A stretch of DNA of 3,255 bases, from the IMG/VR virus record IMGVR_UViG_2563366800_000004; one strand, 5' to 3'. The notes under the pieces are model-generated. The model was not told the DNA's origin. It made no database searches and was given only the letters and a program-made list of their open reading frames with translations. A program made the position numbers and the translations under genes. Each line of letters begins with the position of its first letter. Positions within the stretch are counted from its first letter, which is position 1. Origin of the DNA: a virus (lineage: Duplodnaviria > Heunggongvirae > Uroviricota > Caudoviricetes). Below, piece after piece: positions 1,762 through 3,255 of this stretch.

Positions 1762-2671
1762 GTTATACGAGGTGTATAACAACGGATATCCAACAGCGTA
1801 TGGAAATATCATTCACCTGAAAGGGATGACAGCCGTTGGCGAAGGTGAGTTACTCATCGGCTGGAGTGGTACAAGCGGTGCTCATGCTCCGGCATTTATT
1901 CGTTCACGACGGGATACGACCGACGCAAACTGGTCGCCGCGGGCGCAGCTTTACACCTCGGCTCATCCTCCTGCAGAGTTTTATCCAGTCGGCGCACCAA
2001 TCCCGTGGCCATCAGATACCGTTCCGTCTGGTTATGCCCTGATGCAGGGGCAGACTTTTGACAAATCTGCCTACCCGAAACTTGCAGCCGCTTATCCGTC
2101 AGGCGTGATCCCTGATATGCGTGGCTGGACGATTAAGGGCAAGCCCGCCAGTGGTCGTGCCGTATTGTCTCAGGAACAGGACGGCATAAAATCGCATACC
2201 CACAGCGCCAGCGCATCCAGTACTGATTTGGGGACGAAAACCACATCGTCGTTTGATTACGGCACTAAATCCACGAATAACACTGGTGCGCATACCCATA
2301 GTTTAAGTGGCAGCACGAATGCAGCTGGTAATCACAGCCATAGAGATGGCCGTCGATTTAACCCCAGTGTTTTTAAAGATACTTATCAATATGGTTATAC
2401 AAGCTCAGGTCAAAATACCTGGGGTGTACAAGGCTCAGTAGGTATGTCTACGGGGGCGTTAGCTAATACCAGTACAGATGGTAATCATAGCCACTCACTG
2501 TCCGGCACCGCAGCATCTGCAGGTGCACACGCACATACTGTCGGTATTGGTGCTCATACGCACTCCGTTGCGATTGGTTCACATGGACACACCATCACCG
2601 TTAACGCTGCTGGTAACGCGGAAAACACCGTCAAAAACATCGCATTTAACTATATTGTGAGGCTTGCATAA
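1727..2671 (+). pseudogene. stf: C-terminal ~314 codons of a side tail fibre (Stf) gene, including the receptor-binding tip with HxH motifs; no start codon of its own
   Basis: The frame with codons at 1730, 1733 and onward reads ...[23 protein letters not shown]...[56 protein letters not shown]...[31 protein letters not shown] and stops at TAA 2669-2671. The PIPWP block and the [11 protein letters not shown] terminus are as I recall for lambda/Rac-type Stf C-termini. The frame stays open upstream only as far as a TTG at 1649 inside the Z stump, with no convincing RBS. The first in-frame ATG (1826-1828) has GGG immediately adjacent, which is poor spacing. Confidence 0.8.
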
Positions 2672-3255
2672 TGGCATTCAGAATGAGTGAACAACCACGG
2701 ACCATAACAATTTATAATCTGCTGGCCGGAACTAATGAATTTATTGGTGAAGGTGATGCATATATTCCGCCTCATACAGGTCTGCCAGCAAACAGTACCG
2801 ATATTGCACCGCCAGATATTCCGGCTGGCTTTGTGGCTGTTTTCAACAGTGATGAGGCATCGTGGCATCTCGTTGAAGATCATCGGGGAAAAACCGTCTA
2901 TGACGTGGCTTCCGGCGACGCGTTATTTATTTCTGAACTTGGCTCGTTACCGGAAAATGTCACCTGGTTATCGCCGGAAGGGGAATATCAGAAGTGGAAC
3001 GGCACAGCCTGGGTGAAGGATACGGAAGCAGAAAAACTGTTCCGGATCCGGGAGGCGGAAGAAACAAAAAACAGCCTGATGCAGGTAGCCAGTGAGCATA
3101 TAGCGCCACTTCAGGATGCTATAGATCTGGAGATCGCAACGGAGGAAGAAACCTCATTGCTGGAAGCCTGGAAAAAATATCGGGTGTTGCTGAACCGTGT
3201 TAATACAACAACTGCACCGGATATTGAATGGCCAACAGTACCCATTATCGAATAG
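2671..3255 (+). CDS. tfa: Tail fibre assembly protein (Tfa), 194 aa
   Basis: ATG 2671-2673 overlaps the stf stop (TAATG). The protein [54 protein letters not shown]...[30 protein letters not shown] matches my recollection of lambda Tfa (orf-194) with scattered substitutions. RBS-like GAGG (2659-2662) lies about 8 nt upstream. Stop TAG at 3253-3255 is the last codon of the window. Confidence 0.9.

Follow-up and report, generated by a model that had tools for sequence, protein, structure and literature searches.

A lambda-type side tail fibre tip in a decayed Escherichia coli prophage probably carries its head as an exchangeable cassette between histidine boxes

Positions 2190-2600 of the window, that is, of the whole stretch of 3,255 nucleotides analysed here (IMG/VR record IMGVR_UViG_2563366800_000004; Caudoviricetes), very probably belong to the C-terminal receptor-binding tip of a lambda-type side tail fibre protein (Stf). 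This tip is a close homologue of that of T4 gp37, its head forms a cassette bounded by His boxes, and in this genome the gene is a dead remnant. Homology to gp37, the positions of the HxH motifs, a collar domain and a chaperone gene located directly downstream all place the region among the gp37/Stf tips. The gene is not a functional lambda-type side tail fibre gene, as it has no full-length frame and no tail genes accompany it. All features described below lie on the plus strand unless otherwise indicated.

Seven HxH triplets are read in the stf frame (+2), at 2195-2203 (HTH), 2291-2299 (HTH), 2333-2341 (HSH), 2486-2494 (HSH), 2528-2536 (HAH), 2555-2563 (HTH) and 2582-2590 (HGH). The original prediction had placed them exactly there, and the peptide that it quoted between the third and fourth motifs is also correct. 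The motifs contain 14 of the 17 histidines of the stf' reading frame. Among 100,000 shuffles of the 315 residues, none gave seven HxH motifs; the maximum, six, was reached in 5 shuffles and the mode was 0-1. A phmmer search against the PDB retrieved the gp37 tip (2XGF) with an E-value of 2e-85 over 215 residues, residues 85-314 of the fragment being placed on chain residues 28-242. The proposed homology between the C-terminus of lambda-type Stf and the T4 gp37 tip is therefore borne out. Moreover, the seven motifs pair one-to-one with gp37 H883/885, 915/917, 929/931, 966/968, 980/982, 989/991 and 998/1000, and both arms of the stem align with gp37 without any indel (from H883 to H931 for the descending arm). 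Hence, the histidines do not fall at positions that differ from those of the gp37 metal ligands, an outcome that would have spoken against the prediction; all seven motifs align. In an alignment of 25 homologues carrying different heads, the 14 motif histidines are invariant or at least 90% conserved. In gp37, H929 and H931 are iron ligands and seven iron atoms are coordinated along the needle (PMC6957217). Lambda Stf, which binds OmpC, resembles the gp37 tip in both sequence and structure (PMC12617516), and conservation of the HxH motifs in lambda has been reported (PMC11705849).

The fragment can be divided using the 2XGF alignment and the domain limits published for gp37, namely a D10 knob made of residues 811-881 and 1010-1026, a stem made of residues 882-931 and 960-1009, and a tip made of residues 932-959 (PMC6957217). 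The first half of the collar/knob domain, equivalent to gp37 D10 (about 812-881), extends from 1979 to 2191, and the Pfam Collar family (PF07484) matches the base of the needle with E = 1.5e-12 (47.7 bits vs. a cut-off of 24). It is followed by the descending arm of the needle stem (2192-2341; gp37 882-931) with His boxes 1-3, by the head or tip subdomain (2342-2467), which is the presumed receptor-binding surface, and by the ascending arm (2468-2617; gp37 960-1009) with His boxes 4-7. Finally, the alignment assigns 2618-2668 to a C-terminal strand running back to the collar/knob (gp37 1010-1026). Its final 15 residues are identical in 8 of the 8 aligned sequences, T4 gp37 included, where a T stands at residue 1010 in place of the A of the window. 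Two copies of a 26-nt direct repeat (family D1) flank the head cassette on both sides. The left copy (2315-2340) encodes TNAAGNHSH with His box 3, and the right copy (2468-2493), which is 81% identical to it, encodes TSTDGNHSH with His box 4.

Thus, the collar-needle-head architecture is alike in T4 gp37 (2XGF, residues 785-1026) and in the window, where it is known from sequence alone, and in both cases a chaperone gene is located directly downstream. In contrast, the AT-rich head of the window (42 amino acids, GC3 about 0.26) is unrelated to the 28-residue tip subdomain of gp37 (932-959), the backbone upstream of the collar is also unrelated, and the gene of the window is truncated. The gp37 residues equivalent to the cassette are required for function (PMC6957217).

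By analogy with gp37, an intact fibre of this type would be built from three chains descending from the collar as a needle arm that carries His boxes 1-3. The three chains would then form a small distal head contacting the host receptor, before returning upward as the ascending arm with His boxes 4-7. At each HxH level, six histidines from the three chains would hold a single metal ion on the threefold axis, so that seven metal ions would rivet the needle together. For the tip of the window, iron binding and trimer geometry are inferred from the homology with gp37. An AlphaFold2 model of the monomeric tip, computed with the 25-sequence alignment, has a mean pLDDT of 46 and a pTM of 0.19, as expected for an interwoven trimer.

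The number of rungs varies within the family. Lambda stf, g37 of the Gaprivervirus P896 and the corresponding genes of DCP80 and VR7 have an extra FDYGTK repeat in the descending arm together with an extra HxH in the ascending arm, giving eight motifs; the window regions that match these paired extra repeats are 2240-2262 and 2537-2563. With such insertions in pairs, the needle would gain one rung and its arms would stay in register. In the 120 closest homologues, the repeat counts co-vary, one FDYGTK being found with 3+4 motifs (n = 87) and two with 3+5 motifs (n = 3). Among 142 more distant representatives, the lambda-type proteins and those of the Gaprivervirus phages P896, DCP80 and VR7 fit the paired pattern and one, P0247, does not, it being understood that counting motifs from the largest gap is unreliable in distant homologues.

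The chaperone gene, tfa (2671-3255), is intact. It encodes 194 amino acids and its start overlaps the stf stop codon. The product matches Pfam Caudo_TAP (PF02413) with E = 2.2e-43 and is 94% identical to lambda Tfa and 30% identical to T4 gp38; by analogy, it would act as the folding chaperone of the fibre. The Rfam family IS009 (RF02111), a candidate small-RNA family, gives a full-length match inside tfa at 3014-3212 on the plus strand (222 bits vs. a gathering score of 117), where it coincides with the coding sequence. The Rfam scan detected no RNA family within 2190-2600.

The head behaves as a cassette, as shown by unrelated centres lying in conserved flanks and by one same centre lying in divergent backbones with breakpoints at the His boxes. 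Among the 120 closest homologues in the database, at least 10 unrelated classes of 30-51 amino acids occupy the space separating His box 3 from His box 4, with flanks that are invariant or nearly so. Rac StfR, PhiR29_1, mEp332 and lambda Stf have flanks 92-100% identical to those of the window and unrelated inserts of 30-51 amino acids. The original prediction, which held that the insert differs from that of the Rac-type Stf, is right on this point. K-12 Rac StfR has the same scaffold with seven HxH motifs, a collar and stem arms that are nearly identical, and 93% DNA identity outside the cassette, but its head is a different one of 34 amino acids (SLANVNTASANSGAGSASTRLSVVHNQNYATSSA), its pre-collar domain is another one, and it is full length (1120 amino acids). 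In the DNA, breakpoints in identity define a recombinational exchange unit (2336-2496) that extends from His box 3 to His box 4. The identity of the window to PhiR29_1 and StfR is 43-47% inside 2336-2496 vs. 92-93% outside. With P896 g37 the picture is reversed, 95.7% inside vs. 70.3% outside (Fisher p = 2.6e-13), and the transitions are located at His box 3 and just past His box 4. An insert that cannot be aligned between lambdoid Stf proteins with near-identical flanks, and that is near-identical in P896 with flanks at 70%, is what the idea of a swapped cassette had anticipated.

Other relatives illustrate the same modularity. Ur-lambda Stf (774 amino acids), which binds OmpC, belongs to the same family and has the same stf-tfa locus (Tfa 94% identical, tip 71% overall), but it has a different 43-residue head, an extra FDYGTK and an extra HxH repeat, hence eight motifs. 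The window's head class is found in the Stf of PhiR26_1, mEp460_ev081, PhiR42_1 and PhiR68_2, at 98-99% protein identity across the 314-residue fragment, and in that of Kati, at 92% identity over residues 57-314 with a different pre-collar domain; unlike the window, these five phages have an intact stf in a complete genome. Kati therefore combines the head of the window with a different pre-collar domain, and PhiR29_1 combines the pre-collar domain of the window with another head. At 95% identity or more, the head class is present in 1143 of 5426 E. coli genomes (21%), in seven lambdoid phages and in P896. By analogy with gp37, the His-box-bounded head is a presumed host-recognition cassette. 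The head (2342-2467) would set specificity, and the cassette of about 160 bp is very probably exchanged through recombination in the conserved DNA of His boxes 3 and 4. In the literature, we found no report on the receptor of the PhiR26/mEp460-type head class.

The base composition of the insert differs from that of its surroundings. GC is 0.424 and GC3 is 0.25 in the insert (2342-2485), vs. 0.51-0.53 and 0.44-0.51 in the rest of the tip, and vs. 0.57-0.585 and 0.56 in FI and FII. The insert is therefore more AT-rich than FI/FII, as had been claimed, and the GC and codon usage analysis proposed with that claim does reveal a compositional shift. The GC3 of the cassette (12/46, 0.26) also departs from that of the flanks (86/175, 0.49; Fisher p = 0.007), and only 4% of the 144-nt windows across the whole window match the insert in AT-richness. 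GC1 and GC2 of the insert resemble those of the flanks and the drop occurs at third positions; hence, the shift lies at synonymous sites and does not come from amino acid composition. However, low GC as a sufficient sign of a swap was rejected. The lowest GC of the window (0.368 over 144 nt) is found at 2623-2766, which covers 50 nt at the end of stf and 95 nt at the start of tfa, and this most AT-rich stretch is not variable but conserved at 93-100% among lambdoid phages with different heads. GC3 is 0.31 in the N-terminal third of tfa. Because the conserved stf/tfa junction is even more AT-rich than the insert, low GC alone is not diagnostic: of the original statement that the AT-rich pattern betrays a swap, the swap itself stands, but not the diagnostic value given to composition. 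In other lambdoid head classes, GC3 is 0.35-0.39 vs. 0.49-0.52 in the flanks. As judged from these sequences, AT-richness may be a general property of the head segment or the trace of an older AT-rich donor; a recent exchange with P896 does not explain it, because P896 appears to be the recipient.

P896 is a virulent myovirus with a gp38-type chaperone and eight HxH motifs in gp37, and differs in these respects from the window. Of the more than 200 T-even phages whose tip flanks are homologous to those of P896, P896 alone has the head class. Its congeners DCP80 and VR7 share the flanks at 83-100% and have different heads, which implies a recent swap in P896 whose crossovers fell at His boxes 3 and 4. 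The possibility that a T-even phage was the source in this recent event was rejected, since the cassette occurs in 1 of more than 200 T-even phages and the congeners have other heads. On these sequences, the simplest reading is that P896 took the cassette from a lambdoid phage or prophage.

A single chromosomal place, in E. coli PCP06171, is identical to the whole window, whose exact arrangement is found in no more than one of 5426 complete E. coli genomes. The prophage is located in the att-lambda region, with ybhC and ybhB on either side, and it is a decayed lambda-like remnant represented in its late-gene part. The order of the genes is int, xis and an IS3 element, then, in the window, the essD holin gene, the rrrD lysozyme gene, the Rz'/E' fragments, FI, FII, Z', stf' and tfa. 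From 731 to 1725, the sequence shares 99.5% identity with phage lambda itself. A second internal deletion junction, between Rz' and E', lies at about 713-722, the identity to the end of lambda gene E starting near 721. Between tfa and ybhB, just outside the window, a gene for a diguanylate cyclase with a sensor domain (L001 15329-16660, minus strand) lies inside the expected right end of the prophage at att-lambda and is probably prophage cargo.

The stf' fragment (1727-2671) comprises the 3' 945 nt of the gene, that is, 314 codons and the stop codon, corresponding approximately to codons 711-1025 of the intact PhiR26_1 Stf, with which its product shares 99.0% protein identity. PGAP annotates it as a pseudogene ("incomplete; missing N-terminus"). 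A three-way comparison with lambda Z and PhiR26_1 stf places the Z'/stf' deletion junction at 1719-1726, in an 8-bp microhomology (TAACCGCG). There, lambda Z codon 31 or so is fused to stf codon 711 or so of 1025 (PhiR26_1 numbering). Z' is read in frame +1 vs. +2 for stf', and the join is thus out of frame. The deletion removed lom and the tail genes from the remainder of Z to J, leaving nothing between Z' and stf'. A deletion at the 8-bp microhomology would account both for this out-of-frame junction and for the loss of the tail genes. In the stf' fragment, no in-frame start with a convincing ribosome-binding site was found. Compared with PhiR26_1, the fragment has 11 codon differences, three of which are non-synonymous. 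The codon at 1940-1942 specifies Arg (CGG) vs. Trp (TGG) in the functional phage copies of PhiR26_1 and PhiR29_1, and this change is absent from all of the 262 database homologues compared. The codon at 2456-2458 specifies Ala (GCG) vs. Trp (TGG) in PhiR26_1, Kati and P896; this second change needs two adjacent base changes and is also found in seven protein clusters, all of them short (236-380 amino acids). As two tryptophans kept by functional copies are lost, the tip module itself may be damaged, as far as can be judged at the sequence level. In PCP06171, stf' is a dead remnant unable to build a fibre, as it lacks an attachment domain, a convincing start codon and accompanying tail genes. 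The remnant tip would serve at most as a DNA donor for incoming phages.

Many relatives of 1979-2668 consist of an Stf tip on an unrelated phage N-terminus (terminase GpA, major head protein, ParB, Lom or portal), as in P0003, P0004, P0008, P0039, P0040, P0063 and P0111. A terminase-tip fusion of 348 amino acids is present on 480 contigs. These fusions seem to have arisen through separate internal deletions, each sparing the stf tip and tfa of a decaying prophage, probably because this pair adjoins the attR end. In another protein, P0121 (938 amino acids), a first tip breaks off within its head and is fused to another Stf shaft, which bears a complete RDGRRF-class tip; it looks like a recombinant or an assembly chimera.

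Several other readings of the region have to be weighed against that of a gp37-like tip with an exchangeable head, stranded in a dead gene. The HxH motifs might be a by-product of a Gly/Ser/His-rich repeat (Pfam Phage_fiber), neither binding metal nor being equivalent to the gp37 ligands. In favour of this, the motifs belong to short repeats with the pattern G-x-H-x-H-[ST], one such repeat is matched by Pfam Phage_fiber (PF03335), and the DNA direct repeats D1, D2 and D5 span the motifs. But a repeat of this kind would hardly explain an indel-free one-to-one alignment with the seven motifs of a solved structure reported with seven iron ions, nor the strong conservation of the 14 histidines around heads that are unrelated, so that this view is barely credible. 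The variable AT-rich stretch might also result from local hypermutation or diversifying selection, with a low GC due to amino acid composition and no exchange of cassettes. Point mutation contributes, since the RDGRRF class holds point variants, including the W/A polymorphism. Nevertheless, the restriction of the GC drop to third positions (0.25 vs. 0.44-0.51), head classes that cannot be aligned and range from 30 to 51 amino acids, the sharp breaks in identity at His boxes 3 and 4, and the finding of the cassette at 96-97% DNA identity both in the 70% backbone of P896 and beside the different pre-collar domain of Kati contradict it and make it very improbable.

Exchange being accepted, the cassette could have originated in T-even phages before entering the Stf of lambdoid phages, and its GC3, similar to that of T-even genes, would then be accounted for. 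Its value of 0.26 is close to that of P896 g37 (0.27) and T4 g37 (0.27), vs. 0.49 for the lambdoid flanks, and an older AT-rich donor can be envisaged. We nonetheless consider this origin unlikely: a single phage has the head out of the more than 200 T-even records in which the flanks are homologous, but seven lambdoid phages and 1143 E. coli genomes have it, and the other lambdoid head classes also have a low GC3. As regards the fate of the gene, stf' and tfa might still be expressed and kept for the benefit of the host, for instance as a free receptor-binding protein. In line with this idea, tfa is intact, numerous homologues in the database are remnants of the tip and tfa with an unrelated N-terminus, and a gp37 fragment of comparable extent (799-1026) is reported to fold if co-expressed with its chaperones gp38 and gp57A (PMC6957217). 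However, the fragment has no in-frame start with a convincing ribosome-binding site and its frame is not that of Z', its product would have no tail-attachment domain, two Trp of the functional phage copies are lost, and a single genome out of 5426 has this exact arrangement. In addition, stf-tfa adjoins the attR end of lambda-type prophages, so that internal deletions keep the pair by position alone. Retention for the host is thus highly doubtful, and the reading of stf' as a dead remnant is preferred.

Much of this picture is established. The relationship between gp37 and Stf, the binding of iron by HxH motifs and the recombination of adhesin segments were already known, and many genomes carry an annotation of the allele. 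Work by Tetart and Krisch, including a 1996 paper, reportedly dealt with the recombination of adhesin segments. For the most part, the locus bears out textbook knowledge of phages, conflicting with no accepted result and raising no fresh question. What is mildly new is the clean and recent sharing of a cassette between lambdoid prophages and one T-even-type phage, P896. The swap unit is mapped to the nucleotide level (2336-2496) and occurs naturally in lambdoid and T-even backbones, which makes it useful for the engineering of fibre specificity. One natural case is thereby documented of a cassette common to a prophage lineage present in 21% of complete E. coli genomes and to a virulent T-even-type phage. 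We propose tentatively, with the odds slightly short of even, that the 160-bp cassette passed very recently between lambdoid E. coli prophages and P896, most likely from prophage to virulent phage, and that the stf-tip remnants of decayed prophages, this one among them, are live donors of host range for infecting lytic phages. If this is true, the AT-rich synonymous sites of the heads would mark a gene pool common to phage types that differ in base composition.
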